Assembly: GCF_036323395.1 (NCBI RefSeq)
Contig: NZ_AP028907.1
Location: 2,100,001 to 2,132,000 of the forward strand
Length of the DNA: 32,000 bases
Origin: Pyrodictium abyssi
GTDB lineage: Archaea; Thermoproteota; Thermoprotei_A; Sulfolobales; Pyrodictiaceae
Reading direction: 5' to 3'
The position numbers were made by a program, and so were the translations under genes. Positions within the stretch are counted from its first letter, which is position 1. The number at the start of each line of letters is the position of its first letter. Below, in pieces: positions 1 through 21,542 of the stretch. The notes under the pieces were generated by a model. It did not search any database. It was not told the DNA's origin and worked only from the letters and a program-made list of their open reading frames with translations.

Positions 1-191
1 CCGCAGGCGCCCATCCGGCAGCTGTAGCGGAACACGAGCGAGGGGTCGAGCCGCTGCTTGACGTAGAGCAGCGCGTCTAGCACAGTCATGCCGCGGCGGA
101 GGGGCACCCTGTACTCCTGGACCCAGGCCCGGCGCTCCTCGGGGCTATAGCGGCGCACCCGGAGCACGACCCAGCGCTCCCCACTGGCCAC
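1..191 (-). CDS. sdhB: succinate dehydrogenase/fumarate reductase iron-sulfur subunit, N-terminal part (continues beyond the window)
   Basis: Not in the ORF track because it runs off the edge. Manual minus-strand translation from GTG at 191..189 gives VASGERWVVLRVRRYSPEERRAWVQEYRVPLRRGMTVLDALLYVKQRLDPSLVFRYSCRMGACG. This is the 2Fe-2S ferredoxin-like N-terminus of SdhB/FrdB and ends in the CxxGxCG cluster motif. It starts 6 nt after the sdhD stop. Confidence 0.75.
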   Translation of the reverse strand, partial: MASGERWVVLRVRRYSPEERRAWVQEYRVPLRRGMTVLDALLYVKQRLDPSLVFRYSCRMGAC

Positions 192-197
192 GGCTCC

Positions 198-533
198 TCA
201 CCACCCTAGCGACCTGGCTAGACCGGCGGAGCCAACAGCTACGATGAGGGCTAGGAGGAGCCAGAACAGCGCCTCCACCGCAGCGCGGCCCCGCCCGCTG
301 TGCACGCGCTCGAGCAGTATGCCGCGGAGCCCGTTGAGCCCGTGGAACCCGGCTGCCAGGAGGACTAGCCAGAGCGTCCAGGGCCTCGGGGGCTGCCGGA
401 GCCAGTCAACCGGCACGTGCTCTAGGAGGTGGAGCGGCAGCGCCACGGCCAGCAGGGCGGCGGCTATGTAGCTGAGTAGCTGCCGTAGAGCCTCGAGCCT
501 CCACCCCAGCGCGGCCACGGCTCGGCTCACCAC
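198..533 (-). CDS. sdhD: succinate dehydrogenase small membrane subunit
   Basis: This is the C-terminal ~112 codons of ORF 198..791. An in-frame GTG GTG at 533/530 overlaps the sdhC stop (GTGA). The product is hydrophobic and helical, with motif [13 protein letters not shown] paralogous to [13 protein letters not shown] in sdhC. The upstream part of the 197-aa ORF is Arg/Pro-rich and overlaps sdhC in another frame, so it is treated as over-extension. Confidence 0.6.
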   Translation of the reverse strand: MVSRAVAALGWRLEALRQLLSYIAAALLAVALPLHLLEHVPVDWLRQPPRPWTLWLVLLAAGFHGLNGLRGILLERVHSGRGRAAVEALFWLLLALIVAVGSAGLARSLGW

Positions 534-970
534 GCTACGAGCATGTAGGCTGCTAGGGCGGCAGCCAGGCCCGCTAGGACGACAACAGCGTGGAGTAGCA
601 GCCGCTGCGCAGAGCGCAGGCTCGTGGACACGTAGGGTGGCCGGGGTATCCCCGGCCTGCCCAGGCCGAGGCCCAGGGCCTCGACCAGTATGAGCCTCAG
701 CCCGTTGAGCCCGTGGAACGCCGCCGCGGCGGCCACGGCGAAGCGGACCGCCTTGGAGGTTGTCAGGGCGGCTGCGGGCCAGGCTAGCCACGTGTAGCCG
801 GCGAGAGCCCCGCCCATGGTCACCGCGTGGGCCATGAAGTAGGCTAGTAGTATGAGCCCCGTAGCCCGGTGTAGCCGGTGCGCAAGCCTCTCCGGGTTAT
901 CCGGGACACGTAGCCCGGCCAATCCTCCACGCCACCCCCTATGGGCCCCCGGCCTAGTACCTCCTCTCAA
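527..970 (-). CDS. sdhC: succinate dehydrogenase cytochrome b / large membrane subunit
   Basis: ORF 527..970 has hydrophobic helices ([31 protein letters not shown]). It lies directly downstream of sdhA and overlaps it by 17 nt if the TTG at 970 is used. The start is uncertain. Confidence 0.65.
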
Positions 971-2702
971 CCGGCTTCCAGGTGGTTATCCGGACCGGTG
1001 TGTAGCCCAGCTCGATCTCGCCGCTGGCGTTCATCACTGCTAGCGTGTGCTTCAGCCAGTTCTCGTCGTCGCGGCGGGGATAGTCGACGCGGTAGTGGGC
1101 GCCCCGGCTCTCGGTCCGGGCGAGCGCCGAGACGGCCACGGCCAGCGCCACGTCGAGCATGTTGGCGGTCTCGAGCACTGCCACCAGGTCGGTGTTGTAG
1201 ACCCTGCTCTTGTCGTGGGGGTAGACGTTCCTCATCGCCTCGCGTAGCTTCTTTATCCGGCGCACGGCCTCCTCGAGGCCGCTCCTGTCGCGGAAGACGT
1301 AGACGTAGCGGTCCATGGTCTCCTGTAGCCTCTCGCGGACCTCGTAGACGCTCTCCCCGCTCTCCCGCTTCAGCAGCTCGTCGTAGACACGCTTCTCCTC
1401 CCTCGAGACCCTCTCCCTGCTGGGCCCCCTGGGGGCTCCCGGGTGCTTCTCTAGGAAGCGGAGAACCTGGCGGCCCACAAGCCTCCCGCTGACGAGGCAC
1501 TCTATGGTGCTGTTCGAGCCCAGACGGTTGGCCCCGTGGATGCTCGCCGCGGCCGCCTCGCCCGCAGCCCATAGGCCGCGTACCCAACGGCCGTCGGCGG
1601 CTAGGACGCGGTAGTAGCCGTCGGTGTGTATCCCGCCCATAGTGTAGTGGGCTACGGGGCGCACCGGGAGGGGCTCCTCGACGGGGTCCACCCCGGCGTG
1701 CTTGATGGCTATCTCGCGGACCGCGGGGAGCCGCTCGCTTATCCGCTCCTCGCCTAGGTGGCGTAGGTCGAGGAGCACGTACTCTAGCCCCGTGTGCTCG
1801 TCGCGTAGCCCCCGGCCCTCCATTATCTCGGTCATGATGGCCCTCGAGACCACGTCTCGGGGCGCTAGCTCCATCCGCTCCGGCGCGTAGCGCTTCATGA
1901 AGCGCTCTCCCCTGGCGTTGACGAGGTAGCCGCCCTCGCCCCGGGCGCCCTCGGTGATCAGTATCCCGCTGGGCACCAGCCCCGTGGGGTGGAACTGTAT
2001 GAACTCCATGTCCTTGAGGGGGATCCCCTCGCGGAGCGCCATGGCGAGCCCGTCGCCGGTGCTAGAGTGGCTGTAGGTCGTGAACCTGTAGATCCGGCCC
2101 GCGCCCCCGGTGGCTATCACACCGGCCCTGGCCTTGAATACTATCATCTCGCCGCTCCGGAGGTCCAGGGCCGTGGCCCCGCGGAACCAGCCGTCCTCGA
2201 CGACTATGCTGGTCACGTAGACCTCGTCGTACCTGGTCCAGCCGTCGAAGGCCTGGAGTCTGCCGTAGAGCGTCTGCATCTCGAAGAACCCGGTCTTGTC
2301 GGCCGCGTAGCAGGCCCTCGGGAAGCTGTGGCCGCCGAAGGGCCGCTGGGCTATCCTGCCGTCGGGCCGGCGGCTCCAGGGCATGCCCCAGCGCTCTAGC
2401 AGCCGTATCTCCTCCGGCGCCAGCTTCACCATGGTCCAGACAGCGTCCTGGTCCGCGAGGAAGTCGCTGCCCTTGACCGTGTCCCAGGCGTGGAGCGCGA
2501 CGCTGTCGCCCTCCTCGGGGTAGAGCACGGCGGCCGTGCCGCCCTCTGCGGCCACGCTGTGGCTCCTCATGAGCTGGACCTTGCTGACGATAGCCACGTC
2601 TACCCTGCCGCCGCCGGGGCTCCGCTTGATCTCCAGGGCTGTCCGCAGCCCCGCGAGCCCCGAGCCTATCACGAGCACGTCGTGCTCAACTACCTCGACC
2701 AC
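954..2702 (-). CDS. sdhA: succinate dehydrogenase / fumarate reductase flavoprotein subunit
   Basis: 582-aa ORF. It has an N-terminal FAD fold ([17 protein letters not shown]), the HYTMGGI motif, RGEGG, and the C-terminal ESRGAHYR typical of SdhA/FrdA. Confidence 0.97.
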
Positions 2703-3363
2703 TGTCCCCAGTGCCTCCGAGCAGCTCCTCTAGCCTCTCCCGGACCCGGGCCATCACCTCGTCGTAGAGGTTGCGCCCCCACGTGTCTATCACCACCGTC
2801 AGGGGGCCGAAGTCGCGGACACGGAGCAGCCAGACAGCCTCGGCCATGCCCAGCTCCTCGAGCCAGTAGACAGCCTCAACCTTCTCCACAGCCTGGGCGG
2901 CTAGCACAGCTGCGCCGCCGGTGAAGACGGCGTAGACGGCGCCGTAGCGGCGGCAAGCCTCAGCGGTGCCGGGGCCCATGCCGCCCTTGCCTATCACCAT
3001 CCGGACGCCCGTGAGCCTGATGAAGTCCGGCTCTACCGGCTCCATGCGCGCGCTCGTGGTAGGCCCCGCGGCCAGTATCTCCCAGCCGCCGTCGCCCCGC
3101 CTCCGCGCCACCGGGCCCGCGTGGTAGACCGCGAGGCCCCGGGTCGGGAAGGGCAGCTCCCCGCCGCTCTCCAGGATCTCGATTATCCTGCGGTGAGCGG
3201 CGTCACGCGCCGTGAACACGAGCCCCGAGAGGTAGACGGTATCGCCGGCCTCTAGGCGGCGGACCTCGTCCCCGCTCAAAGGGGTCGAGAGCCGGTAGAC
3301 ACGGGACACGGCCACCACGCCCCCGGGAGCAGTGGCTAGATGTGCTCCGAGGTTATCCTCCAC
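2686..3363 (-). CDS. fumB: class I (Fe-S) fumarate hydratase, beta subunit
   Basis: Carries TARDAAHRR and GKGGMG motifs of the Fe-S hydro-lyase beta (C-terminal) domain. It follows the alpha subunit. The start may instead be the in-frame GTG at 3318 just after the alpha stop. It overlaps the sdhA start by 17 nt. Confidence 0.9.
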
Positions 3364-4220
3364 GAGCCGTCCGGCCCGAAGACGCCGCTGGCGCGGCGGA
3401 GCGCCCAGCAGCTAAACACCACCCCGACAGCGTAGGTCGCGGGGTGGCGGAACCCGTACTCGATGTGGAGGCCTAGCGCGGTCACCCGGCCCCCGAAGCC
3501 GTGGGGCCCCAGCCCCAGCCGGTTCACCTCCTCGAGCAGCTCCTCCTCCAGCCGCGCAGCCTCCGGATCCGGGTGCCGCGAGCCCAGGGGCCTCAGCAGC
3601 GCAGCCCGCTTAGCCAGGGCGAGAGCCTGGTCGCCCCCAGCAGCAATGCCCACGCCCACCACGAAGGGCGGGCACGGCTTAGGCCCAGCCTCGGCCACAG
3701 CCCGGAGCACCGTCTCGCGCACCGCCCGTAGCCCCCTCAGCGGCAGCGCCATAGCGAGCCGCGTCGGCGCCTCGCTCCCCCCGCCCTTCGCCACGAACAC
3801 AGCCTCCAGCCCGTCGCCGGGGACGAGCTCGACCTCCACCCAGGGCACGTAGCGGCCAGTATTGTCGCCGCTATTCACGCCCCTCAGCGGGTCCACAGCG
3901 TTAGGCCGCAGCGGCACAGCCCTGGTAGCCTCCCTCACAGCCTCAGCAGCTACGTCGTAGAGCCTGCTACGGAGCGGAAACCCGTCCCCCACCCTAAGGT
4001 AGAACAACGGCGTCCCTGTGTCCTGGCACAACGGCCTCCCAAGCCGGGCAGCAAGCCTCGCATTCTCCAGCATAGCCTCAAGCTGCCGCCTGGCCACCGG
4101 GCTATCCTCTGCCTCCAGCGCCCTCTCCAACGCCTCGTACACGTCCCGCGGGAGCCGGGTAACCGCGACACGGATAAGCTCCACAAAGAAGCCCCGCAGC
4201 CTACCCTCCAGCCCAGCCAC
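3336..4220 (-). CDS. fumA: class I (Fe-S) fumarate hydratase, alpha subunit
   Basis: 294-aa ORF with the LCQDTGTP motif and overall Fe-S hydro-lyase alpha-domain character. GTG start at 4220. It is adjacent to the sdh genes. Confidence 0.92.
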   Translation of the reverse strand: MAGLEGRLRGFFVELIRVAVTRLPRDVYEALERALEAEDSPVARRQLEAMLENARLAARLGRPLCQDTGTPLFYLRVGDGFPLRSRLYDVAAEAVREATRAVPLRPNAVDPLRGVNSGDNTGRYVPWVEVELVPGDGLEAVFVAKGGGSEAPTRLAMALPLRGLRAVRETVLRAVAEAGPKPCPPFVVGVGIAAGGDQALALAKRAALLRPLGSRHPDPEAARLEEELLEEVNRLGLGPHGFGGRVTALGLHIEYGFRHPATYAVGVVFSCWALRRASGVFGPDGSWRITSEHI

Positions 4221-4353
4221 GGCCCCGCACCAGACACGGGCAGGTCAGCGCTGGCAAACCCCTACACAGATCCCACAACAGGACCCCAAATACAGTCCCC
4301 CGCAGCAGGGGAGGACAAAACCGAGACAGCAGCCAGCCAGGGCGCCAAACCAG

Positions 4354-4746
4354 CTACACACGTCCCTCTCGGCGCCCAAGCCTCTCCTCAAGTCTCGCTC
4401 TAATGTAGCGGGCTAGCCCGAGGACCGGAGCTAGGTCGAACGGTAGGAGAAGCCCCGGGATACCCTCAGCCTCAACCCCCAGGACCACAGCCACGTAGCC
4501 GCCGCTCTCCCCGTCCAGGGGCCCCTCGCTCTCCACGTCGATGTCTACGCTGTAGTAGTACATGTCGCCCTCGCCTGCCAGGTAGTCTTCGAGCCCCCGG
4601 TAGAGCCGCGTCCTCCGGGCATAGCCCACAACCCTCCTAGCAGCCCTAACAGCCTCCTCCAGGCCAACGCCCTCCGGCACCTCTACGACGATGCCGCCCT
4701 GGACTTCCACCTGGGTGTGCGAGCGGTCGCCAGCCGGAAACACCAC
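4354..4746 (-). CDS. hypothetical protein (C-terminal frame-0 segment of the composite gene 4354..5157)
   Basis: 130-codon ORF with strong third-position GC bias. A T-run (GGTTTTG) follows the stop. No family was recognised. Confidence 0.6.
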   Translation of the reverse strand: MVFPAGDRSHTQVEVQGGIVVEVPEGVGLEEAVRAARRVVGYARRTRLYRGLEDYLAGEGDMYYYSVDIDVESEGPLDGESGGYVAVVLGVEAEGIPGLLLPFDLAPVLGLARYIRARLEERLGRREGRV

Positions 4747-5157
4747 GTCAAGGTAGAGGCTGCTAAAGGGGCCTCGTCCTCCACGGCTACGATCTCTATG
4801 GACGCGCCGTTGGCAGCGCTACAGCCCCTCCCCTGCAACTCCTCGCTTGGGACACGGCACACCACGTCCTCCACGCTCATCGTCTCAAGGAGGCCCAGGA
4901 ACCCCCTAAACACCGCGTAGTCTATGAACCCGGCCAGCAGCGCCGAGGAGGAAACCAGCCGCCCGAACACGCCGAGGCTCAGCCGCCCAGGGGCGAGACT
5001 GCTAAGGCGGCACCGGCTCCACGATACCACTCGCCGCGTAGACCAGCATCTCGACAACCTCCCTGGCCGGCCTCCCCGTCGCCCTCACCAGGCTCTCCAG
5101 AGCCCTAGCAGCCTCGCCGCCCAGCTCCGGCCGGAGCGAGCCAGCCACACACAGCAC
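4354..5157 (-). pseudogene. composite hypothetical gene readable as frame 0 / +1 / 0 (two compensating frame changes)
   Basis: Frame 0 runs from GTG 5157 (VLVLCVAGSLRPELGGEAARALESLVRATGRPAREVVEMLVYAASGIVEPVPP) and stops at TAG 5004..5002. The +1 frame (ORF 4683..5057) is open with high GC3. Frame 0 reopens at 4746. The total length of 804 nt is a multiple of 3. Confidence 0.4.
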
Positions 5158-5183
5158 CAGAACAATGTATACCCCCTGGACTC

Positions 5184-5203
5184 AGCTCTATATAGCTCTA
5201 TAT
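5184..5203 (-). promoter_or_regulatory. tandem TATA-like decamers (AGCTCTATAT x2), candidate promoter of the 4354..5157 gene
   Basis: A perfect 10-bp tandem duplication; the minus strand reads ATATAGAGCT twice. It lies about 30-45 nt upstream of the in-frame GTG at 5157, which is compatible with an archaeal TATA box and a near-leaderless transcript. Confidence 0.4.
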
Positions 5204-5513
5204 ACAGGCCCCCGGGGAAACTATAGGAACACGCCGCCATGCCCCCGAGGCAGGCAGGGCAGACAGCCCCGAGGAAGCCAGCCAGACCCTGAAGGCCTCT
5301 CCGGGCCCGGCACAGGCAAGGGTGGCCCGTCGCCCTCTGCGCAGCCGAGGAGCTGCTAGCTGGGTGTCGTGGCGGGTCGAGAACCGTAGGCTCGGGGCAA
5401 GGCGGAGCAGTGTCGACGCTGGCGCTGAGACCCGGAAGGAGCTGCAAGAGCTCCTCGACATGCTAGTGTCGAATGCTAGGGCTGGCTCTCGCCGCATATC
5501 TCCCTGGCATGTT

Positions 5514-5777
5514 TTACCCCTTCTTGGTGAGCCCGTAGCTCCTCCTGCCCGGTGCATGGCTCTTCTCCCACGCGAGGCCCATTGCCACGAGTCTCCGGAG
5601 AGCCTTGGAGGCCATGCCGCGGGCCTCGCGGGGCAGCCTCCGAGCTACCGCCTCGGGCGGTATATGGCATTTTGTTGAGGCTCCACAGAGGCTGTAGAGG
5701 GCGCAGAGCACGGCCCGGAGCATGTAGGGCGGGGGCTTCGGGGTCACACTCAACTCCCCTGGTTCTACCAGAACCAT
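5514..5777 (-). CDS. small winged-helix DNA-binding protein (putative transcriptional regulator)
   Basis: 87-aa ORF. The segment IPPEAVARRLPREARGMASKALRRLVAMGLAWEKS...GRRSYGLTKKG resembles the recognition helix plus wing of MarR/ArsR/PadR-like wHTH proteins. It is divergent from 5861..6364 across a palindrome. Confidence 0.55.
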   Translation of the reverse strand: MVLVEPGELSVTPKPPPYMLRAVLCALYSLCGASTKCHIPPEAVARRLPREARGMASKALRRLVAMGLAWEKSHAPGRRSYGLTKKG

Positions 5778-5794
5778 GTAGCTACTTAAGCCTT

Positions 5795-5823
5795 TCTGGC
5801 AGAACAGTTATAGCTCTGCCAGA
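5795..5823. promoter_or_regulatory. 9-bp perfect inverted repeat TCTGGCAGA-N11-TCTGCCAGA in a divergent promoter region
   Basis: Arms at 5795-5803 and 5815-5823. The 11-nt spacer ACAGTTATAGC contains a TATA-like TTATAG. It sits between the starts of the wHTH gene (5777, minus) and the AbrB-like gene (5861, plus). Confidence 0.5.
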
Positions 5824-5860
5824 AACACTCTTCTAGCCCCCCGGGGGAGGCGAGAGTCCC

Positions 5861-6364
5861 TTGGAGACCCTGCAGGAGGCCCGGCTCCTCGAGGAGCCCC
5901 GGGCCGGGAGGAGCGTCACCCTACTCCTCAAAGTGAGGGCGGAGAAGCAGAGGAAACGGCTACGCAACGGCGAGCCTAGAGAGTATGTGGTCTGGCGCGC
6001 CACCATCCCAAGGGAGGCCGCCGAGAAGCTGGGCCTAGACCCCGAGGCCGGCGAGGAGCTGTTGGTCGCCACGCTGGAGGTGCCAGACTGGCCCCTCCTA
6101 CTCCTCTACCACGACCCCCAGACCCGGAGGCTCTGGGACAGGCTACCCCCAGAAGCCAAGGCCAAGGCCTGCAGCCTAGGCCACGCCCCCGAGCAGCTCT
6201 GCCGCTACTATCGTACCATAACCGTGATAGCCGGCGAGGAGGAGCTAAAGCGCCTCGGCCTAGAGCCCGGCCAGCCCATAACCCTCCGGGAGCTACTAAA
6301 GCGGGCAAGAAACACAAACAACAGCAACAGCCAGGCCGCGACAAAGCAGACAAAAGGCCTCTAA
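5861..6364 (+). CDS. protein with two SpoVT/AbrB-like (swapped-hairpin) segments
   Basis: 167-aa ORF with a TTG start. Two segments match the AbrB/MazE signature (xIPxExxxxLGLxPGxxL): VVWRATIPREAAEKLGLDPEAGEELLVATLE and RTITVIAGEEELKRLGLEPGQPITLRELL. It has a polar low-complexity tail. Confidence 0.6.
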   Translation: METLQEARLLEEPRAGRSVTLLLKVRAEKQRKRLRNGEPREYVVWRATIPREAAEKLGLDPEAGEELLVATLEVPDWPLLLLYHDPQTRRLWDRLPPEAKAKACSLGHAPEQLCRYYRTITVIAGEEELKRLGLEPGQPITLRELLKRARNTNNSNSQAATKQTKGL

Positions 6365-6534
6365 CCACGCCCTCCCATAGCCCCGTAGACGAAGAAGACA
6401 AGCCACAGAGGCCAACAAAAAGCCCCCAGCTCACCGCCGAACGTCCAACCCCCGGCCCCGGGTTCGGCGAAGAACCCTGCCCGGCCGGCCAAGCCACACC
6501 AGGCGCCAAGATACAGAAACACAGCCCGCCGCAT
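6361..6534 (-). CDS. small hydrophobic protein starting at the end of the terminal degenerate CRISPR repeat
   Basis: The ATG at 6534..6532 gives MRRAVFLYLGAWCGLAGRAGFFAEPGAGGWTFGGELGAFCWPLWLVFFVYGAMGGRG (57 aa) with two hydrophobic stretches and moderate GC3 bias. The track ORF 6361..6603 extends further into the repeats. Confidence 0.35.
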   Translation of the reverse strand: MRRAVFLYLGAWCGLAGRAGFFAEPGAGGWTFGGELGAFCWPLWLVFFVYGAMGGRG

Positions 6535-6701
6535 CTCAGCGTCCTCCTGGATTCTTCGCGGCGAGGCAATGGAGATGGACTGGGAGAAGTGCAGCCATCC
6601 CAAGAAGGCTCAGTGCCATCTAGATTCTTCCCTCTACGGCTTCATATGGCTCTTACCCTGTCCACATAGTACTTGAGGTTTCAGTGTCTTCTTGATTCTT
6701 C
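6533..6701 (-). CRISPR. CRISPR fragment A: one perfect and two degenerate copies of a 24-nt repeat
   Basis: A perfect GTTTCAGTGTCTTCTTGATTCTTC lies at 6678-6701. GGCTCAGTGCCATCTAGATTCTTC at 6607-6630 has 5 mismatches. ATCTCAGCGTCCTCCTGGATTCTTC at 6533-6557 has mismatches plus a 1-nt insertion. Spacers are 49 and 47 nt. The orientation call (minus) rests on the minus-strand reading GAAGAATCAAGAAGACACTGAAAC ending in GAAAC, and on repeat decay toward 6533, taken as the trailer. Confidence 0.8.
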
Positions 6702-6966
6702 GCCCATCTCGGCAGCGGCCTCCGCGGCGCGCGGTCTATCTGCCGCGCCAGGACCCAGACGTAGCCTAGGGACTCGCGGTACTCCATAAAGCTCATAGCA
6801 CGGCCACCCCCAGGCCTATAGGCGGGTGCGCGGCGTGGCGCGTGGAAGGAAGGCTATGACGTGGAGAGAGGCTATAGACTGGGCTATACGGGAGTACCGC
6901 GAAGACCTAGACAAGCTCAGAGAATACGACCTCAAGGCCAGGAAGCCAGCCAAGGCCTAGACACCG

Positions 6967-7398
6967 CTAGCCGTGCTGGATCCTCTGGAGCCAGCGCTTC
7001 ACCTCCTCGGGGCCCCACTCTCCAGCCGCCACGCGGACGGCCACTCTCCAGACACCGCCTGGCCGAGGAGCCTTCAACGAGTTCTTACGCATGAACGCGG
7101 CTAACATGGTGGCTGCCAGCCTCTTGTTGCCGTCTCTCAGCGGATGCCTAGCTATTATCTCGTAGAAGAGCGTGGCCGCTGCAGCGAGCTTCTTCTCCCT
7201 GCACGATCCCCTCGTGAAGGCTGCGGCGAACCTAGCAGCCGACACAGCATCCTCCAGAGCCGCCCTCACGGCGACGTGTATATGGTCCTCTGGGTAGATG
7301 CGCCTAAGCCTCTCCACTGCGTAGAGAAGCGCCTCCACCGTAGGATAGTATATCCTGCACTTCCTCCTGGACCTTCTACCCTTCCTCTTCCCCGCCAC
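6967..7398 (-). CDS. doc: Doc (death-on-curing) / Fic-family toxin
   Basis: 143-aa ORF containing ARHPLRDGNKRLAATMLAAF, the Doc variant of the Fic motif (HxFxDGNKR). It overlaps the upstream 113-aa partner gene by 23 nt. An alternative in-frame GTG at 7338 would remove the Arg-rich N-terminus. Confidence 0.9.
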   Translation of the reverse strand: MAGKRKGRRSRRKCRIYYPTVEALLYAVERLRRIYPEDHIHVAVRAALEDAVSAARFAAAFTRGSCREKKLAAAATLFYEIIARHPLRDGNKRLAATMLAAFMRKNSLKAPRPGGVWRVAVRVAAGEWGPEEVKRWLQRIQHG

Positions 7399-7717
7399 CC
7401 GTCTCCACCTCTCCCGCCATCTTCTCGATCTCGGCGTCGTCTACGACGAGGCGCCTCGACTTCGCCAGGGCTGCTAGGAGCATGGCGTAGGCGTCTGGCG
7501 GCGGCCCCTCCACGACATCGGCGCGGAGCCACTCGTTCACCGCCGCGTCCGCGAACTCCTCCACCGCCTCGCGGAACTCCTCGTCATCCACGTCCACAAC
7601 TATGTCTGCCCTCTTCGCCAGGATCTCTGGCGCGTCCCCGAGAGCCCGCCTCACCCTAGCAAGCTTGGCTTGAAGAGACGCCTTGCCGAGCTTGTAGCTG
7701 AACAAGTCTATGCTCAA
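7376..7717 (-). CDS. putative antitoxin partner of Doc (acidic protein, family not recognised)
   Basis: 113-aa acidic ORF immediately upstream of doc and overlapping it. Its TTG start overlaps the stop of a small upstream hydrophobic reading frame (TTGA). The assignment rests on position only. Confidence 0.6.
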   Translation of the reverse strand: MSIDLFSYKLGKASLQAKLARVRRALGDAPEILAKRADIVVDVDDEEFREAVEEFADAAVNEWLRADVVEGPPPDAYAMLLAALAKSRRLVVDDAEIEKMAGEVETGGGEEEG

Positions 7718-7846
7718 GGCTTCCTCCCACCCCTAGCAGCTATCGCGAGGAGGATCAGGGCGAGCGCCGCGGCGCCAGCAGCCGCGTAGAGCACGGTCCT
7801 ATCGCCGTCGGTCGGGATCAGGGCCCTGGGCTTGTGCCAGGTGGTC

Positions 7847-8024
7847 GTTTCAGTGTCTTCTTGATTCTTCTTGTGAAAGGCGTAGGACACATCACGGTGC
7901 CGCCACTTATACCCGCCTCTAGTTTCAGTGTCTTCTTGATTCTTCAGAGTAGACGCTTAGCAGAACCCACCTTTTTCACCGGGACTACGGGTAAGAAAAC
8001 GTTTCAGTGTCTTCTTGATTCTTC
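7847..8024 (-). CRISPR. CRISPR fragment B: three perfect 24-nt repeats
   Basis: GTTTCAGTGTCTTCTTGATTCTTC occurs at 7847-7870, 7922-7945 and 8001-8024. Unique spacers of 51 and 55 nt separate them. The repeat and orientation are the same as in fragment A. Confidence 0.9.
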
Positions 8025-8089
8025 TCCATACGAGGAACATTCCCAGCGAGAAAACAGCCCAGGGGAGCCAGGCCGCGGCCTGCAAGGCT

Positions 8090-8278
8090 CTAGGCACCGG
8101 CCAGCGCCCTTAGCCTCTTCATGGCCTCCTGGTAGGTGATTTCCCCCTTCTCCCACCGGGCCAGTATGGCGTGCACCTTCTCACGGTTGCCGTTTCTGGC
8201 CGCCTTCTCGGCGAGCCTCATTAGGCTCATCATCCTCCTGCGCATTTCGACTACCCTAGGATGGGGCATACTCTTCAC
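8090..8278 (-). CDS. small helical protein downstream of the PIN-like gene (possible antitoxin/partner)
   Basis: 62-aa ORF (the ATG at 8269 is the more likely start) overlapping the 3' end of 8256..8696. The sequence is basic and helical (LARWEKGEITYQEAMKRLRAL). No family was recognised with confidence. Confidence 0.45.
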   Translation of the reverse strand: MKSMPHPRVVEMRRRMMSLMRLAEKAARNGNREKVHAILARWEKGEITYQEAMKRLRALAGA

Positions 8279-8696
8279 CGGTCCTGTGGTTTATGCAGTA
8301 CAGGCCTAGCCTTATAGCCTTCTTGCACGCCTGCGAGTCGCTGGTCACAAAGTATCTTGCCCCTAGCTCCTTGGCTGCGAGGATGTGTGCGACATCCACT
8401 ACCGTGTTGTCTGATAGTGCTGCTACGCCCCATTTCTGGAGGAGGCTCTTCGCCCTCTTTAGCAGCCTTAGAACGCCGACGCTGTATACGCGTATACCGT
8501 AGCTTCGGGCGAGGAGCCTGGCCGTGGCTTGCTTGTTCACTGCCGCGTACTCCCGGATGAGCAGCTTGCTTGTACAGAGCATGCCCCTGTGCCTCAGCGC
8601 GAACTCTATAGCCTCCCTCCTCGAGTCCTCGAGATCGACGAAGAAGTTCGTGTTCACGTAGTACCGGCACCTCCGCCTAGGCCTCCTCCCGGCCAC
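8256..8696 (-). CDS. PIN-like domain protein (putative toxin)
   Basis: 146-aa ORF. It has an N-terminal strand YVNTNFFVDLED and a C-terminal VVDVAHILAAKELGARYFVTSD resembling the first and last acidic-residue segments of PIN domains, although the first Asp is replaced by Asn. An alternative GTG start lies at 8657. Confidence 0.65.
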   Translation of the reverse strand: MAGRRPRRRCRYYVNTNFFVDLEDSRREAIEFALRHRGMLCTSKLLIREYAAVNKQATARLLARSYGIRVYSVGVLRLLKRAKSLLQKWGVAALSDNTVVDVAHILAAKELGARYFVTSDSQACKKAIRLGLYCINHRTGEEYAPS

Positions 8697-8802
8697 CCCT
8701 CACCGCCTCTTAGCGGACGCGGTCATGCCTAGCACGAAGCCTAGGAAGGTGAGCGCGAACGCCACCACTACCAGGAGCTTCAGCTTGGCCGAGACCGTCT
8801 CC

Positions 8803-8826
8803 GAAGAATCAAGAAGACACTGAAAC
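8803..8826 (+). repeat. solitary CRISPR repeat in inverted orientation relative to fragments A and B
   Basis: GAAGAATCAAGAAGACACTGAAAC is the exact reverse complement of the 24-nt repeat. No second copy follows it to the right. Confidence 0.9.
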
Positions 8827-9222
8827 CTCGGCTATGCCCCTGTCGCTGTGGGGTGCGAGTGTCTTCATTAGGTCGCGCTTGTACTTGCCCATGAAGAGTA
8901 CGGCTATGTAGGCTAGGGCTAGGCCGGCTGCTATGCTCACGCCTAGCCCTATGGGCCCGGCTGTGGGGGCTCCGAGGAAGGCTCCTACCCCGACGAGCGG
9001 CGCTATGGCTATGAGGGCAGCAGTGAAGCCCACGGTGGAGACCAGGACGTAGTGGAACACCTCGCGCCGGCCGTAGTACTCGGCGACGTAGTACATGCCG
9101 GCGATGTAGAGGGCTAGCCCTATGAGGCCTAGCGCGCCGTGTAGAGGCGAGAGCGTGGAGGCTACGAGGCCGAGGGCTGCGAGAGCCTTAGCAGTGGTCA
9201 GGTCCAGGCCAGGGGCCACCAA
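8809..9222 (-). CDS. integral membrane protein (resembles archaeal DUF996-type proteins), probably 3'-truncated
   Basis: 137-aa ORF with about 4 hydrophobic helices and the segment MYYVAEYYGRREVFHYV. The last codons (AEVSVSS-stop) are encoded by the solitary CRISPR repeat itself. The family assignment is from memory and unverified. Confidence 0.6.
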   Translation of the reverse strand: MVAPGLDLTTAKALAALGLVASTLSPLHGALGLIGLALYIAGMYYVAEYYGRREVFHYVLVSTVGFTAALIAIAPLVGVGAFLGAPTAGPIGLGVSIAAGLALAYIAVLFMGKYKRDLMKTLAPHSDRGIAEVSVSS

Positions 9223-9315
9223 AGGGGAGGATAGGACGCGTATCCTGGTATATGCTGCTCGCCCCCGGCAGGCGGTGTGGCTGGGGAGCCTTGCCGAGGG
9301 AGAAGGGTGGGCGAG

Positions 9316-9393
9316 TGGCGGGCCCGGGGGGATTTGAACCCCCGACCACCGGCTTAGGAGGCCGGCGCTCTATCCTAGCTGAGCTACGGGCCC
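9316..9393 (-). tRNA. tRNA-Arg (anticodon CCT), CCA encoded
   Basis: The minus strand reads GGGCCCGTAGCTCAGCTAGGATAGAGCGCCGGCCTCCTAAGCCGGTGGTCGGGGGTTCAAATCCCCCCGGGCCCGCCA. It has a 7-bp acceptor stem, a D arm GCTC/GAGC, an anticodon stem CCGGC/GCCGG with loop CTCCTAA, and a T arm GGGGG/CCCCC with TTCAAAT. Confidence 0.95.
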
Positions 9394-9508
9394 TCCCAGT
9401 CTGGGGCTTGGGAGGCCGTCCGGGGTGGGGCCCCGTGGCCCGCCTCTCCATGGGTCTCTTGTCACCCTCTGGGGGCTGATTATATGCCTTCTCCCCGGGG
9501 GACCGGGG

Positions 9509-10702
9509 CTAGGCGAGCTCTAGGGCTACTGCTGTGGCTCCGCCGAGGCCGTGGCAGAGGGTGGCTATCCCGCGTTCTCCGCCCAGGCTTCTCAGCGCGT
9601 TGATGAGCGTCACTATTATGCGGGCGCCGGTCGCGCCTATGGGGTGGCCTAGGGCTATCGCGCCGCCTAGGGGGTTTACCCGGTCGAGTGGGGCGCCGAG
9701 CATGTCCCTGGCTAGGAGCAGGCTTACCGCGAAGGCCTCGTTGACTTCTATGTAGTCGTAGTCCTCTAGCCGTGTCCCTGTCCGCTCGAGGAGCCTGCGG
9801 ACCGCGTAGACCGGTGCTTCTAGGAACCTCCAGGTCTCGGTGGCGGCCCAGGCGTAGCCTGTCAGCCTGGCCAGGGGGCGGAGCCCGTACTCGTCTAGGG
9901 CCCGCTCCGAGGCTAGCACTAGGGCGGCGGCTCCGTCGCTCAGCTGGCTGCTGTTGCCGGCGGTGTGTAGCCCGTCGGGGCCGAAGGCTGGGGGTAGGCG
10001 GGCGAGCTTCTCGGGGCTCGTGTCGGGCCTCACTCCCTCGTCGTGGTCGAGGCTGATACGCCGCCCGTTCTTCTCCACGTCCACGGGCGCTATCTCGCCG
10101 CTGAACAGGCCCGCGCGCTGCGCCCTGGCCGCGCGGGCGTGGCTCTCCGCGGCCACCTCGTCGAGCATCTCCCGGGTGTAGCCGTGCCTCCGCGCAACCA
10201 TGTCCGCCTCCTGGCCCATCCCGAGCCCCGCTACCGGGTCGTAGAGGCCGTCGTGGAACATGGCGTCTAGCAGCTCGAGCCGCCTGGCTATGAGGTGCCT
10301 TATCCCCCAGCGGGCATCGGCGGGCACGATGAAGGGCGCCCGCGACATGCTCTCCATGCCGCCCGCTACCACCAGGTCAGCGTCCCCAGAGCGTATCATC
10401 ATAGCAGCGTTGATCACCGCAGCCATCCCGGAGGAGCACACCATGTCCACGGTGGCGGCGTCTACGGCGGCCGGTATCCCGGCGCGGAGCGCTGCCTGCC
10501 TCGCCGTGTCCTGGCCCGTGCCAGCGCGTATAACGTGGCCCATGTAGACGAACTCCACGCTCGAGGGGTCCACGCGGCCCCGCTCCAGGGCTGCGCGGAT
10601 AGCGATGGCTCCTAGCTCTACCGCGTCTAGGCGGGAGAGGCTGCCCCCGAACCTGCCTATGGGCGTACGGGCGGCTGACACGATGTAGACATCCCTGGCC
10701 AT
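9509..10702 (-). CDS. acetyl-CoA C-acetyltransferase (thiolase)
   Basis: From the ATG at 10702 it reads MARDVYIVSAARTPIGRFGGSL. It has an active-site Cys region (VDMVCSSGMAA) and the C-terminal NPLGGAIALGHPIGATGARI and CHGLGGATAVALE motifs. The track ORF extends 30 codons further upstream to 10792. Confidence 0.93.
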   Translation of the reverse strand: MARDVYIVSAARTPIGRFGGSLSRLDAVELGAIAIRAALERGRVDPSSVEFVYMGHVIRAGTGQDTARQAALRAGIPAAVDAATVDMVCSSGMAAVINAAMMIRSGDADLVVAGGMESMSRAPFIVPADARWGIRHLIARRLELLDAMFHDGLYDPVAGLGMGQEADMVARRHGYTREMLDEVAAESHARAARAQRAGLFSGEIAPVDVEKNGRRISLDHDEGVRPDTSPEKLARLPPAFGPDGLHTAGNSSQLSDGAAALVLASERALDEYGLRPLARLTGYAWAATETWRFLEAPVYAVRRLLERTGTRLEDYDYIEVNEAFAVSLLLARDMLGAPLDRVNPLGGAIALGHPIGATGARIIVTLINALRSLGGERGIATLCHGLGGATAVALELA

Positions 10703-14214: not shown

Positions 14215-16356
14215 CTACATCGCTGCGGCGAACGCTCTTATGGCGAGCGCGACTATGGTTGCAAGTGCGAGGTCGTAGGTTAGCGCTGCTAGTGCTAGCC
14301 GGGCGCTCCTAGTCTCAGAGTATATCGTGGCGAGCGTCGCCATGCAGGGTATGTAGAGCGTGACCGCAGCCATTAGTGCTAGTGCCTGCCAGGGCTCCAG
14401 AGCGTAGGCTGCGAGAGTCGCGTACTCTGCCTCGCCCGTAGCGCTGTCTAGGGGCGAGACCACGGCTATGGAGTCGAGGAACACCTCTTTGGCTATGAAG
14501 CCGCCTAGTAGGCCGAAGCCTATACGCCAGGCCCGGTCATAGTCCACGCCTAGCAGGTGCTCCACGTAGGGTGCTAGTAGCCGGCCCACGGCCGCCGCGT
14601 AGCTCTGGGAGGCGCCTCCGTCCACGTCCCCGAGGTAGCCGGCTGGCCCGTAGTTTGCTAGCAGCCAGAGCACGATGCTGGCCGCCACTATCACCGTGCC
14701 GGCGCGGACGAGGAAGTGGCGCAGCTTATCCCAGACGAACCACCAGACGACCCGGAGGCTAGGCCTCTTCAGCGGCGGTAGCTCCAGCACTATCTCGCTA
14801 GCCTCGCTGCCTTCGATGCGGGTAACGAGCTTCAGCGTCGCCAGGAACGATGCTATCGAGATCAGGTAGACGGTGAACACTGCTAGCGCGCTCTCTAGGG
14901 GGCTCCGGAAGAACACGTGCGCTAGCGCCAGGAGTACTGCTAGCCGCGCGCTGCAGGGCACCAGTGGTATCGCGAAGGCTACGGCCCTCTTCTCCTGCAC
15001 CGAGTCCATAACCCGGGTGGATATCACGCCCGGCACGTTGCAGCCGAGGCTGACCATGGCCGGGAATATCGCCTTGCCGCTGACGCCGAAGCGGCGGAAG
15101 AACCTGTCAACCCCCGCCGCTATCCGCGGCAGCAGGCCGGAGTCCTCTAACGCCGCTATCAGCGCCATAAGCACGGCTAGCAGCGGGACGAAGGTGAGCA
15201 CCAGGCCTAGCCCGTACTCGGAGGAGAGGACCCCCTCGCCTATTAGCCGGGCTAGCACCGGGTGCGGGATAACGCCCTCCACCCAGCCGGCGAGCCTATC
15301 CATAGCGGCGGCGACGAGCCCCGAGAGGCTATACTCCGCTACAGCCTCCGCGGCCTTCTCGAAGCCGAGGCGCTCGAGGAGCACGTCGAGAGGCCAGCCC
15401 GTCGCGATAACGTAGGTGGCGAGGAACACGAGGAGCATAAACCCGAGGCTAGCAAGAGGCCCCGTCAACGGGTTGAGGAAGACCAGGTCTAGCCTAGACA
15501 AGCCCCCGCCACCGTCATCGCCCTCCACGCGCTCAACGTACCTCTCGTAGAGGCGGGAGGCGTACTCGTACCTCCTCTTTATGAACTCGAGCGACGGGTC
15601 CAAGCCCCTAGCGGCTAGCTCGCCGCGGAGCCTCTCAGCCTCCTCGACCACTCTCCGGGCCCCAGCGGGGCCCAGCAGCTCCTCGAGGTACCGGGGGACC
15701 CAGTCGTAGCCCTCGAGGAGCTTTACGGCGAGCCACCTGGCGCGCCCCGGCTCGACCCCCTCCTCGGCTAGGAGCCCGGCTAGGCGGTCCACGTAGGGCT
15801 TGAGATCGCCTAGAACCTTCTCTAGCAGCCTCCCGTCATCGCTTCTACGCCTTGGCCTCCTGAGGGCCTCTACTAGCCCGTCGACACCCTGCCCCTCTAG
15901 GGCGCTGACGAGCACAACAGGTGCTCCCAGCTCTTTCTCCAGGCCCTCAACGTCTATGCGTAGCCCCTTCTCCCCGAGCATGTCGGCCTTGGTCAGCACC
16001 ACCACGACGTTGTCGAAGGCCTCTAGCAGCTCTAGGGGGAGGAAGAGGCTCCTCTCCAGAGTCGTAGCATCGGCTATAGCGACTATCACGTCGGGGCTGT
16101 TCTCCAGGAGGAAGCTGCGCGTAACCTCCTCCTCGGGGCCACTGCCGCTGATACTATAGGTTCCGGGGAGGTCGACTATGCAGAGCGTAGAGCCGTCGGC
16201 CCTAAGGTAGGCGGTCTTAATGTCCACGGTCGCGCCTGGCCAGTTGGCGACGAACTCGCTCGACCCGGTAAGCCTGTTGAAGAGCGTAGTCTTACCACTG
16301 TTAGGGGCACCCACTAGCGCTGCTACTATGCTGCATTCTCGCTGGCCACGCTCCAA
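14215..16356 (-). CDS. feoB: ferrous iron transport protein B
   Basis: 713-aa ORF with an N-terminal G domain (VGAPNSGKTTLFNRLTG, DLPGTYS, TKAD) followed by a polytopic membrane domain typical of FeoB. Confidence 0.95.
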   Translation of the reverse strand: MERGQRECSIVAALVGAPNSGKTTLFNRLTGSSEFVANWPGATVDIKTAYLRADGSTLCIVDLPGTYSISGSGPEEEVTRSFLLENSPDVIVAIADATTLERSLFLPLELLEAFDNVVVVLTKADMLGEKGLRIDVEGLEKELGAPVVLVSALEGQGVDGLVEALRRPRRRSDDGRLLEKVLGDLKPYVDRLAGLLAEEGVEPGRARWLAVKLLEGYDWVPRYLEELLGPAGARRVVEEAERLRGELAARGLDPSLEFIKRRYEYASRLYERYVERVEGDDGGGGLSRLDLVFLNPLTGPLASLGFMLLVFLATYVIATGWPLDVLLERLGFEKAAEAVAEYSLSGLVAAAMDRLAGWVEGVIPHPVLARLIGEGVLSSEYGLGLVLTFVPLLAVLMALIAALEDSGLLPRIAAGVDRFFRRFGVSGKAIFPAMVSLGCNVPGVISTRVMDSVQEKRAVAFAIPLVPCSARLAVLLALAHVFFRSPLESALAVFTVYLISIASFLATLKLVTRIEGSEASEIVLELPPLKRPSLRVVWWFVWDKLRHFLVRAGTVIVAASIVLWLLANYGPAGYLGDVDGGASQSYAAAVGRLLAPYVEHLLGVDYDRAWRIGFGLLGGFIAKEVFLDSIAVVSPLDSATGEAEYATLAAYALEPWQALALMAAVTLYIPCMATLATIYSETRSARLALAALTYDLALATIVALAIRAFAAAM

Positions 16357-16964
16357 AGGGGCTCCCCAGACGGGTAGAGGATGTCAAGGGTACTTTAAAC
16401 CATGTTAAAATACAAGGCAAAGCTGTATCGGCATAGATATTAGTTCTATTTCGGATAGTAATGTCTGTTATCCCGCGGCCCTAGCACCGGGTCTGCAAGC
16501 TAGCCCTCAGTTGGAGTCTCTAGGCAACAACATAGACTGGCGGGATTAGAACCAACGCTAGATGCACGGCACGGGGTACTACAAGGCTTAGCTACTCCAG
16601 AAGGTCGGCAATCAGCCCCGAGGCTATGTTTGCATCCCCTACAGATAGAGGACATAGAAAAGCTGCCAAGGAACTCCCTTGATGTTGGCTCGAGTAACTG
16701 CTCCCTACGGCTTATGTAAAACCAGGCGTCGTCGGGACAGGGGTGCAAAGGTAGACACCAGCAGATAAGCTGTAGCCAGCGGCGAGAAATGCTATACCAG
16801 CCAGTACATCTGCGAAGAGCATGGTCATGGAGTCTCCTAGGCCCCGGCGTAAGTAGCAGCTATAGTCGCGAGGCTCATAGATGCCTTGGTCAAGGCCACG
16901 TGCAGCAATGTGCCACTATATTCTCTACAGCAATGGGGGTAGGGCTAGACTTGGAGCTAAGACT

Positions 16965-17790
16965 TCAACCGTGATGGATAACATATTCGGGACCGTCTAG
17001 AGGAATGGCCTCCCATCCTTCATAATCCTTCCAGCGGGTCTTTGCAGCGGCAGTCTGTTCGAGTTTCTGTGGTCTCCATTTCCAGTCTGGAGAATTGCCG
17101 GCTGCTTCAGTGCATACGCTACGTAGAGGATGAATAGAGTGTGCATAGTCATGAGATGACAGGAAGAAATCTAGCACAGTGTCAACGCCCGCAGCGCCTA
17201 GTATGAGTGCCCACCTACCAGGGGCAGGATGATACCGCAGCGGCTTCATGCAGCCTATGATGTTACGTTAGTGTCTCCTGATAGTCTCTTCACGAGAGAC
17301 ACGGCGTGCTCGAGGCAGAGTAGATGAGATAGATGTACCTCTGTGGCTTTCCCTACAAGGTTGTCAGCAATGATCATGGAAGGGGTGGGCTTCCCCATGC
17401 AAGGTCATAGAGGAGTAGAGGAGCAGTAGTCTCTTCTAGGATGTCGATCACAGCTATGTCTAGGCGGTGGTCTCGCAGCGTGAAGGCCTCCTAGGAGAAG
17501 CTGTAGAGGAGTATACACAGTACAGCTATCAGCTATGGATAACTATATCCATTCAGGACGCTTTATAGCCAATAGTGTGTAGATAGCAGAAGCGCAGCCT
17601 AGGTTACGAGATAGGTCAATGCATACACATGGTATATTACGTACCTTTGGGCAGACTTAGCTAGGTCCTTGAACTCATTGTGTCCCATGGTATCCTTTGC
17701 GGCTGATGTAGGGGACACTTTGCCGGGGTACATACTACACACTTAGCTATCGCTGTTTTCCGGATACCAGTCCTAGTGGCACAGACCCCT
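16965..17790 (-). pseudogene. decayed ABC-transporter ATPase gene(s) (DppD/DppF-like remnant)
   Basis: The operon position immediately downstream of the two permeases lacks any long ORF. Minus-strand fragments resemble the signature/Walker B/H-loop region: LPRARRVSREE..., then ORF 16965..17249 with HPAPGRWALILGAAGVDTV...FLSSHDYAHSIHPLRSV (compare LSGGQRQRV...LLILDEPTSALD...ISHDLxVVxxxADRV). Multiple stops are present. The similarity was judged by eye only. Confidence 0.45.
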
Positions 17791-17793
17791 GGT

Positions 17794-19481: not shown

Positions 19482-19677
19482 TTAACCCGACCCCCATAGA
19501 CGTCGTTAATGCGCTATGCGGGGCAGAGGCAAACGCATCGCACCCTTGAAGTCTAGTTGGGTCTTGCAGCCTGCGTGGAGTCCAGCACCATTGAGCTTGG
19601 TGCGCTGGGTTACGGGCCAGGAACACTAGCAAAAGGGGGCTGGCTCTCCGAGTTGGCTCACAGAGAGGTCCTGGGTA

Positions 19678-21483: not shown

Positions 21484-21525
21484 ATGTCATATACATACTA
21501 TTAATTCCGAATATCTTTAAAATTT

Positions 21526-21542
21526 GTATGAATTATTCATAC
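21526..21542. promoter_or_regulatory. 17-bp perfect palindrome GTATGAATTATTCATAC in an AT-rich divergent intergenic region
   Basis: It lies between the binding-protein gene (minus) and the TehA-like gene (plus). The surrounding 21484-21637 region is strongly AT-rich with several TATA-like runs (CTTTAAAATTT, TATATTAAG). Confidence 0.4.

Follow-up and report, generated by a model that had tools for sequence, protein, structure and literature searches.

How do gene-bearing stretches of roughly a kilobase come to lie between the repeats of what appears to be a CRISPR array? The question is raised by a locus at positions 6533–8826 of a 32,000-nt stretch of the Pyrodictium abyssi genome (assembly GCF_036323395.1, contig NZ_AP028907.1, positions 2,100,001 to 2,132,000 of the forward strand; in the following the window), in which seven copies of a 24-nt repeat alternate with short spacers and with two long segments, one carrying a Doc toxin gene and the other a PIN-like gene. 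An initial annotation, made from the letters alone, had seen here an orphan CRISPR locus in which whole toxin–antitoxin (TA) cassettes take the place of a spacer and of the leader. Comparison with related loci leads us to another answer. The best reading is that the repeats mark old break-and-join sites and not the borders of neat gene cassettes, and we consider it somewhat probable that the locus is a relic array (six direct repeats with four short spacers on the minus strand, plus one inverted repeat) that was scrambled by breakage and joining at repeat borders.

Results

Repeats and spacers

A search of the window found five exact copies of the 24-mer GTTTCAGTGTCTTCTTGATTCTTC, four on the plus strand (starting at 6678, 7847, 7922 and 8001) and one on the minus strand (starting at 8803); in dinucleotide-shuffled sequence, zero copies are expected. 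Two more copies are degenerate: the one starting at 6607 has five mismatches, and the one at 6533–6557, recognized by reading the sequence and partly found as a repeat family, has five mismatches and a 1-nt insertion. No further copy was seen across the 32 kb, where the next-best positions have at least nine mismatches and are at chance level, and no second array was found there. The minus-strand reading of the repeat ends in GAAAC, and the strands in the following list refer to this reading (GC, guanine plus cytosine content).

6533–6557, minus strand: most degenerate repeat copy, at the trailer end
6558–6606, minus strand: spacer s4, 49 nt, GC 0.59
6607–6630, minus strand: degenerate repeat copy
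6631–6677, minus strand: spacer s3, 47 nt, GC 0.49
6678–6701, minus strand: exact repeat at the junction with the Doc segment
7847–8024, minus strand: exact repeats 7847–7870, 7922–7945 and 8001–8024, with s2 and s1
7871–7921, minus strand: spacer s2, 51 nt
7946–8000, minus strand: spacer s1, 55 nt
8803–8826, plus strand: lone exact repeat, inverted, at the point where the DUF996 gene is truncated

With start-to-start distances of 74, 71, 1169, 75 and 79 bp, the six direct repeats form two triplets with a period of 71–79 bp, to which the single inverted copy is added, and the long inter-repeat intervals measure 1145 bp (6702–7846) and 778 bp (8025–8802). The four short spacers (47–55 nt) are all unique and have a GC content of 0.49–0.59; the triplet at 7847–8024 has 0.46, the long segments of the island 0.60–0.65, and the flanks 0.68–0.69. 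As RNA in the GAAG...GAAAC orientation, the repeat is unstructured and has no internal dyad. Degeneration rises towards 6533, from zero mismatches to five and then to five plus an indel, and the degenerate copies lie at the trailer end. In these respects the initial annotation was accurate, as it had listed the seven copies at these coordinates with the one at 8803 inverted, the GAAAC end of the minus-strand reading, intervals of 1145 and 778 bp, and decay towards 6533.

Junctions at the repeat edges

The repeats sit in a strain-specific island (about 5195–8826) that is flanked by tRNA-Arg and a DUF996 gene and by the fumarase operon. In the closest relatives, the Logan contigs L001–L005, blastn matches are limited to window positions 1–4312 and 8827–9282, with 96.5–96.6% identity of the fumarase–sdh region (1–4312) in L001–L003, where the contigs cover it; an intact DUF996 gene is followed by about 240 bp and then by the fumarase operon, and the island is absent. 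P. delaneyi (L006) matches window 1–5194 and 8828–9363 and has genes for a 137-aa and a 260-aa protein between DUF996 and fumarase. Homology to the window therefore ends at 8827 in the one case and at 8828 in the other, beside the lone repeat at 8803–8826, and it is here that the host gene is damaged.

8809–9222, minus strand: DUF996 membrane-protein gene, truncated, 137 aa as against 168–176 aa in three relatives

The protein encoded here is 100% identical to a DUF996 protein on record for P. abyssi. Its alignment with the relatives is collinear through E132; the final five codons (VSVSS) and the stop codon are then supplied by the repeat, and 40 codons are lost exactly at the inverted repeat. 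On the nucleotide level, the relatives read GCCGAG|CTAGCC and the window GCCGAG|GTTTCAG, which is the outer (GAAAC) edge of the repeat. The missing 3′ end of DUF996 is absent elsewhere in the window.

The second junction with a comparator lies between the PIN segment and the array.

8025–8802, minus strand: PIN segment, 778 bp
8801–8700, minus strand: final 33 codons of a gene that we call X
8696–8256, minus strand: PIN/VapC-fold gene
8278–8090, minus strand: gene of a 62-aa partner (p62), downstream of the PIN gene
within the PIN segment, cut at the repeat 8001–8024, minus strand: start of an open reading frame (ORF) that has 86 aa in L065

The metagenomic contig L065, which carries the closest PIN homologue (89% identical in amino acids), matches the PIN segment with 93% nucleotide identity (L065:11–717, window 8732–8024). 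A stretch of 298 bp that is specific to L065 separates its PIN module from the fumarase promoter region, beyond which L065:1016–1888 is 93.5% identical to the fumarase region of the window (4266–3394). In L065, X′-PIN-p62 thus adjoins the fumarase promoter region in the same orientation as in P. abyssi and without an array, which argues that the PIN module was resident and that the repeats came to it. Along the minus strand, L065 and the window agree through ...CCTCGTATGGA(G), ending GTATGGA(G)|, past which L065 continues with CGTGGTC... and the window with the repeat, (G)AAGAATCAAG... The breakpoint therefore is the leader-proximal edge of the repeat 8001–8024, with an ambiguity of 1 nt, and the 86-aa ORF of L065, which spans this point, is cut in P. 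abyssi. It had been proposed at the outset that the idea would fail if relatives carried the same TA genes at this position without flanking repeats, the junctions then being coincidental. L065 does have the PIN module without an array, but the loss of homology no more than 1 nt from the edge of the repeat speaks against a coincidental junction. On its other side, the C-terminus of gene X (ETVSAKLKLLVVVAFALTFLGFVLGMTASAKRR, with the conserved counterpart GLLLGISATARRR in L065) abuts the inverted repeat; the L065 contig stops 60 bp before this junction, for which a comparator is absent.

The third junction concerns the Doc segment.

6702–7846, minus strand: Doc segment, 1145 bp, bounded by two exact direct repeats
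7846–7714, minus strand: 3′ fragment of a membrane-anchor gene
7717/7705–7376, minus strand: antitoxin-like partner gene, upstream of Doc and overlapping it
7398–6967, minus strand: Doc toxin gene (Pfam Fic)
6856–6960, plus strand: convergent 34-aa gene
6796–6702, minus strand: first ~30 codons of a conserved 122-aa gene, cut at the repeat

Nucleotide homology to the relatives L064, L067 and L069 reaches within ~10 nt of 6701/6702 and is then lost in the repeat, and the 122-aa gene, conserved in L064, L069 and L070, is cut at this position in the window. At the other end, the 133 bp upstream of the antitoxin-like gene code for a C-terminal membrane anchor that belongs to an unrelated gene (...RTVLYAAAGAAALALILLAIAARGGRKP*) and reach the repeat 7847; no relative spans the junction 7846/7847.

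Three independent comparisons thus place breakpoints at or near repeat edges, at a distance of 0 nt (DUF996), 1 nt (PIN) and within ~10 nt (122-aa gene), and one of them truncates a host gene. The genes cut at repeats are DUF996, the 122-aa gene, gene X, of which the 3′ end is kept, and the ORF known with 86 aa from L065. The long segments are therefore not mobile TA cassettes, as they are arbitrary pieces of genome whose border genes are cut; the idea of whole cassettes in the initial annotation found no support, and the alignment with relatives, which might have shown cassettes present or absent exactly at repeat boundaries, showed truncated border genes instead. The GAAG ends of both repeats that flank the PIN segment face this segment, and every element except the lone repeat is co-directional with DUF996. 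Neither microhomology nor a pseudo-repeat was found at the native sites in L002, L065, L064 and L069, where the best local matches to the repeat had empirical p values of 0.05–0.37, and this route was rejected.

The exact repeat at 6678–6701 and the lone repeat share an inverted identity (6675–6702/8802–8829, 28 nt) that outlasts the 24-mer by 3 nt at one end and by 1 nt at the opposite end. The 3-nt extension at the lone repeat, GAG, is the native DUF996 codon E132, and the chance of such an extended identity is roughly 1–2%. A transposon with these ends was considered and rejected, since a target-site duplication is absent and the DNA on the left is a spacer and not the missing 3′ end of DUF996.

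The TA modules of the two long segments

The Doc gene and its overlapping upstream partner (ORF 7376–7717) are complete, as initially annotated, and both are intact in P. abyssi. Doc scores 30.6 bits with Pfam Fic (cutoff 24; 6e-7) and 33.4 bits with NCBIfam DOC_P1, under the cutoff of 38.65; it has a weak match to the Doc family in the PDB (E=1e-3) and a motif of the Doc type (consensus HxFx(D/N)(A/G)NKR), HPLRDGNKR, which is invariant in 13 homologues, and its ratio of nonsynonymous to synonymous substitution rates (dN/dS) is 0.21–0.37. The partner (109–113 aa, 113 aa in the window) is kept upstream of and overlapping Doc in L064, L067 and L069 with a dN/dS of 0.20; profile searches matched it to no antitoxin family. 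The convergent 34-aa protein is 97–100% identical in L064 and L067 though the DNA is only ~82% identical, and with a dN/dS of ~0 the ORF encodes a real, strongly constrained micro-protein of the Doc module. A module of antitoxin-like, Doc, convergent 34- or 41-aa and 122-aa genes recurs in L064, L067, L069 and L070. L067 (10.6 kb), which has the closest Doc module among the long contigs, continues past the module with an HTH regulator, a 1003-aa protein, Csc2, Csc1, a DEAD-box helicase and the N-terminus of a Cas2-like protein, a gene set that makes up a type I-D-like cas cluster. The Doc segment looks like DNA from beside a CRISPR-Cas locus. No relatives of Doc were found on viral contigs (IMG/VR), in phages or in plasmids, and the repeat is absent from all fetched loci of Doc and PIN relatives.

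A PIN-like gene with a 62-aa partner in the 778-bp segment had likewise been predicted correctly, the partner lying downstream and not upstream, and both genes are intact in P. abyssi. The AlphaFold model of the PIN protein (pLDDT, the predicted local distance difference test, 93.9) has VapC toxins (E 6e-5, TM scores 0.65/0.71) and PAE2754 as its best Foldseek matches in the PDB, and the Pfam PIN score is 19.9 bits, under the cutoff of 23.6. All 13 family members have an Asn (NTN) where the first catalytic Asp would stand, and the conserved acidic residues are D21, E23, D101 and D120; the four acidic active-site residues plus upstream antitoxin of a VapBC system are not found in this module. 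The 62-aa partner is conserved in L065 and L066, and p62 is frameshifted in L065.

Probable CRISPR identity of the repeats

The locus has at least three near-identical direct repeats of a length within 23–50 nt and unique spacers alike in length, which is the architecture of a CRISPR array. A length of 24 nt, lack of structure and a GAAAC end are features of crenarchaeal repeats. Together with the regular spacing, the unique spacers of low GC content and the degenerate trailer, this supports a reading of the repeats as a probable remnant of a CRISPR array of crenarchaeal type.

The array is an orphan within the 32-kb window: no cas domain occurs in the scanned ORFs (all large ones, those of the island and two of smaller size), in keeping with the initial annotation, and the scanned ORFs encode housekeeping functions such as fumarase, succinate dehydrogenase, thiolase, FeoB and an ATP-binding cassette (ABC) transporter. 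The exact 24-mer had no match in genome contigs, metagenome contigs or IMG/VR, collections that evidently lack the source genome, and look-ups of the exact Doc, PIN and DUF996 proteins of the window returned no record. Relaxed two-repeat patterns matched only unrelated bacterial and Methanothrix arrays in genomes, with no array from Pyrodictiaceae, and nothing in metagenomes. The Rfam CRISPR-DR family gave no match over 6400–8900 even at E<=10. For the short spacers, phage and plasmid records, a comparison set without Pyrodictium viruses, gave nothing above chance, 22-mers of s1–s3 had no match in IMG/VR, and none of the spacers matched the fetched relative loci or the window. As to a leader-like sequence, the three repeat-proximal flanks have nothing in common, and the flank of the repeat 8001–8024 is native DNA that runs on without an array in L065. 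A literature search on the CRISPR-Cas content of P. abyssi found nothing.

Discussion

How the locus may have been built

We propose that the array became interleaved with two kilobase-size pieces of ordinary DNA through breakage and rejoining at repeat borders. The first piece would be a resident neighbour of the fumarase operon, X′-PIN-p62, on both sides of which repeats were joined; the second, antitoxin-Doc-p34-122aa′, would be DNA of the kind that flanks cas operons in relatives. The joins could have been made by, or in the repair of, cuts at repeat borders, where the Cas1–Cas2 integrase cleaves, and recombination between repeat copies may be an alternative. Integration by Cas1–Cas2 is known as the process in which both borders of a repeat are cut exactly; that this enzyme was behind the joins is something that we only infer and regard as rather doubtful. 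Locus F of Sulfolobus solfataricus, which is leaderless, has two repeats separated by a plasmid-like fragment of 899 bp (Lillestol et al., 2009, described in PMC4390879), and according to a proposal by Garrett and colleagues, crenarchaeal arrays change in structure when Cas1 cleaves them and the cuts are repaired (PMC4390879). A relic array scrambled at its repeat borders is favoured because of the junctions and cut border genes described above, the lack of microhomology, of a shared leader, of a transposon signature and of a recombinase gene, this precedent, the Garrett proposal and the existence of an integrase that cuts at these borders. Decay of the locus is seen in the pseudogene of the 260-aa protein (described below) and in the degenerate trailer repeats. 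Among the three explanations offered initially, repeat-mediated recombination comes closest, except that it had been pictured as a capture of discrete cassettes, and the PIN module is resident.

Loss of a segment between direct repeats is easy. Both large inserts are kept with intact TA operons, and loss of a segment would be counter-selected by a stable toxin; TA addiction, the third of the initial explanations, would be a plausible reason for their retention. Since the elements are co-directional, read-through transcription could still give CRISPR RNAs (crRNAs), given a cognate Cas6 elsewhere. If the repeats are processed as CRISPR repeats, the 8-nt ACUGAAAC is the 5′ handle expected on small RNAs. 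A bolder version appears improbable to us, namely that repeat borders served as portable recombination sites, at which the adaptation integrase or nick repair joined kilobase-size DNA, so that gene-sized ‘spacers’ arose, part of a host gene was deleted and a co-transcribed mosaic was built with TA operons and crRNAs in one precursor; Cas6 cleavage could then control the TA mRNA, and the TA modules could protect the array from deletion.

Several points weigh against the scrambling of a relic array as set out here. Comparators are lacking for two of the five segment borders (8802/8803 and 7846/7847), the third junction (6701/6702) is resolved only to ~10 nt, and the PIN segment, found in P. abyssi and L065, is absent from the closer L001–L005 lineage, so that ‘resident’ may mean ‘exchanged among strains’; more generally, the pattern of presence and absence at this hot spot implies that segments were gained, lost or exchanged several times. 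The Cas1 step is purely hypothetical, prespacers measured by the canonical integrase are ~30–50 bp long, and canonical integration does not yield an inverted repeat beside a native gene. The CRISPR identity is one of architecture alone, because no cas gene, second array or spacer match was found. Finally, as five repeats are free of mutations amid a decaying region, selection could be ongoing, and the array would then be no relic.

Other explanations of the locus

The island might instead be a decayed integrated plasmid or virus that landed beside tRNA-Arg with its own mini-arrays, solitary repeat and TA modules, features that are described for mobile elements of archaea and bacteria. Two-spacer mini-arrays and one solitary repeat would fit this, as such units in mobile elements have been reviewed (PMC8616872), and so would the TA modules, the small winged helix-turn-helix (wHTH) and AbrB-like proteins and the lower GC content of the island. 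The tRNA-Arg neighbourhood is, moreover, an integration hot spot, in which P. delaneyi carries an integrase-bearing element. We nevertheless hold this origin to be unlikely, as genes for an integrase, for replication or for structural proteins are absent from the island, searches of IMG/VR, phages and plasmids found no relatives of Doc or of the island's 167-aa protein, the PIN segment is syntenic with fumarase in L065 and has diverged as much as the flank, and the insertion truncates DUF996 without duplicating a tRNA att site. The entry of the Doc segment alone into an intact five-repeat array, as a repeat-bearing circle and by homologous or site-specific recombination, would yield just the two exact direct repeats that surround it; prophage integration into CRISPR repeats is documented (bioRxiv 10.1101/2020.10.09.333658), and recombination between solitary repeats and arrays has been proposed (PMC8616872). 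The segment, however, has truncated border genes and neither a recombinase nor genes of mobile elements, and the inverted repeat at DUF996 and the PIN/array junction would remain unexplained as separate events, which makes the circle distinctly unlikely.

The idea of two or three independent small divergent arrays, with the TA operons as leader or promoter region, draws on the repeats at 8803 and 8001, which both point their leader-proximal (GAAG) end at the PIN segment, on the co-direction of TA operons and arrays, and on the divergent array pairs around a gene cassette that often occur in Sulfolobales (PMC4390879). Two divergent arrays that share one leader had also been among the initial explanations. 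It is disfavoured, and we consider divergent arrays very unlikely: the three repeat-proximal flanks have no common sequence, the supposed leader runs on as native DNA past the junction in L065, the right-hand ‘array’ is a single repeat followed by a truncated host gene, and the border of the left array at 6701/6702 runs through the 122-aa gene. The least probable alternative, to which we give only a slight chance, is that the 24-mer is no CRISPR repeat and instead a dispersed repeat or recombination site (the end of a miniature inverted-repeat transposable element, an integron-like or a dif-like site) or an assembly artefact. It could account for the missing Rfam CRISPR-DR, cas gene and spacer matches and for the absence of the exact or relaxed repeat from the other genomes and metagenomes searched, and dif modules are brought to mind by TA modules that have short inverted sites at their borders. 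Two triplets with a period of 71–79 bp and unique sequences between the repeats are, however, a CRISPR signature, the repeat lacks the internal dyad of Xer/dif or attC sites, and the border genes are truncated, unlike those of integron cassettes. Because the 24-nt repeat is shorter than the usual assembly k-mers, reads that span the junctions must, we infer, exist.

Three known kinds of module were tried as candidates and rejected: integron cassettes, since both ends of each segment fall within genes, the repeat is devoid of dyad symmetry and no integrase occurs in the window; dif modules, on their defining features; and CreTA, since the modules encode proteins, are conserved as proteins, and no cas operon lies in the window.

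Relation to known systems and significance

Locus F is the nearest parallel to the relic array of P. abyssi, in that a crenarchaeal, leaderless array with unstructured repeats of 24–25 nt holds a kilobase-size non-spacer fragment exactly between repeats; in P. abyssi, such repeat-bounded fragments are found at 6702–7846 (direct repeats) and 8025–8802 (inverted repeats). The array of locus F is described as inactive. P. abyssi differs in having two fragments, with intact TA operons, truncated chromosomal genes and no plasmid sequence, an inverted-repeat bracket, DUF996 truncated at a repeat, a tiny array and no nearby cas genes. Orphan or degenerate arrays and solitary repeat units (PMC8616872) are similar in lacking adjacent cas genes and in having degenerate terminal repeats or a lone copy; orphan arrays, though, usually keep a regular repeat-spacer structure, unlike the present locus, and solitary units are known mainly from viruses and proviruses, whereas the lone repeat of P. 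abyssi lies at a deletion junction in a host gene (PMC8616872). As with vapBC in Sulfolobales cas cassettes (PMC4390879), type II-like modules (PIN and Doc) are physically tied to CRISPR components, but previous examples are placed beside arrays or among the cas genes, and those of P. abyssi lie between repeats and are bordered at repeat edges. PhiAP1.1 of Streptococcus pyogenes (bioRxiv 10.1101/2020.10.09.333658) also places large DNA between direct copies of a CRISPR repeat; it uses an integrase and a repeat-mimicking attP, whereas the P. abyssi fragments have no recombinase or phage genes and end in cut genes. CreTA (PMC10097628) shares the association of TA function with CRISPR elements and repeat-like sequences, yet consists of small RNA genes beside cas operons that are regulated by Cascade via a degenerate mini-array, in contrast to the protein TA operons found here.

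Large non-spacer inserts in crenarchaeal arrays, orphan arrays and the association of TA genes with CRISPR loci are already known, and the noteworthy part is the precision of the repeat-edge junctions, including the truncation of a host gene. The locus preserves how a CRISPR array falls apart and what part its repeats take in genome rearrangement. If the joins were indeed made at Cas1–Cas2 cut sites, they would be rare in-vivo evidence for kilobase-scale rearrangement by the adaptation machinery. The locus is also a concrete, testable case for the old idea that TA modules persist in and around CRISPR loci by resisting deletion. For annotators, it is a warning not to take gene-bearing kilobase ‘spacers’ for mobile cassettes.

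Other features of the island and the window

The remainder of the island and its neighbours contain the following features.

4369–5148, minus strand: frameshifted pseudogene of the 260-aa gene, which is intact beside fumarase in P. delaneyi
5195–6532: P. abyssi-specific remainder of the island, without homology in any fetched locus
5514–5777, minus strand: wHTH protein, 87 aa
5861–6364, plus strand: 167-aa protein, divergent to the wHTH gene
6534–6361, minus strand: possible membrane ORF, 57 aa
9316–9393, minus strand: tRNA-Arg(CCT), the only structured RNA detected in the window

Among the compared relatives, the 260-aa gene is confined to P. abyssi and P. delaneyi; in the pseudogene, the reading frame is kept in the N-terminal and the C-terminal part, and the middle is frameshifted and has stops. 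A perfect palindrome (TTCTGGCAGA...TCTGCCAGAA, at ~5795–5826) lies between the divergent wHTH and 167-aa genes. The 167-aa protein is a member of a very rare family, with 25 representatives in a set of 1.8 billion proteins, has only weak, sub-threshold AbrB/MazE/TOBE matches and no relatives on viral contigs, and its single-sequence AlphaFold model (pLDDT 55) is too poor for a fold search; the pair may represent a third TA-like or regulator module.

On the side of DUF996 that faces away from the island, P. delaneyi (CP013011; L006, positions 1–9927) has ~15 genes without Pfam match beside the homologue of window 9316–9363. Together with the gene of an SSV-type integrase (PF16795; PHROG integrase 1e-14), they abut just the 3′ 48 nt of the tRNA-Arg sequence, and one 339-aa protein has weak tape-measure-like matches; this element looks like a virus or plasmid integrated at the tRNA-Arg that in the window flanks DUF996. 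In the closest relatives, homology to the window upstream of DUF996 ends at 9282, and ARAGORN predicts a 95-nt tRNA-Gly(GCC) in L002 (189–283) in place of the tRNA-Arg (window 9283–9393), so that strains vary on this side as well.

Farther away in the window, the stretch 16000–22500 spans a peptide/oligopeptide ABC transporter (SBP_bac_5 and two permeases) and has a GC content of 0.51–0.55, compared with 0.65–0.70 elsewhere; it may have been acquired horizontally. At 29061–30774 (minus strand), two overlapping ORFs (409 and 183 aa) share between them an AAA_21/AAA_15 (OLD/AbiEii-like) ATPase, which may be a frameshifted defence gene; near it, at 26492–27100 (minus strand), a 202-aa protein with a C-terminal MazE/AbrB domain is encoded.

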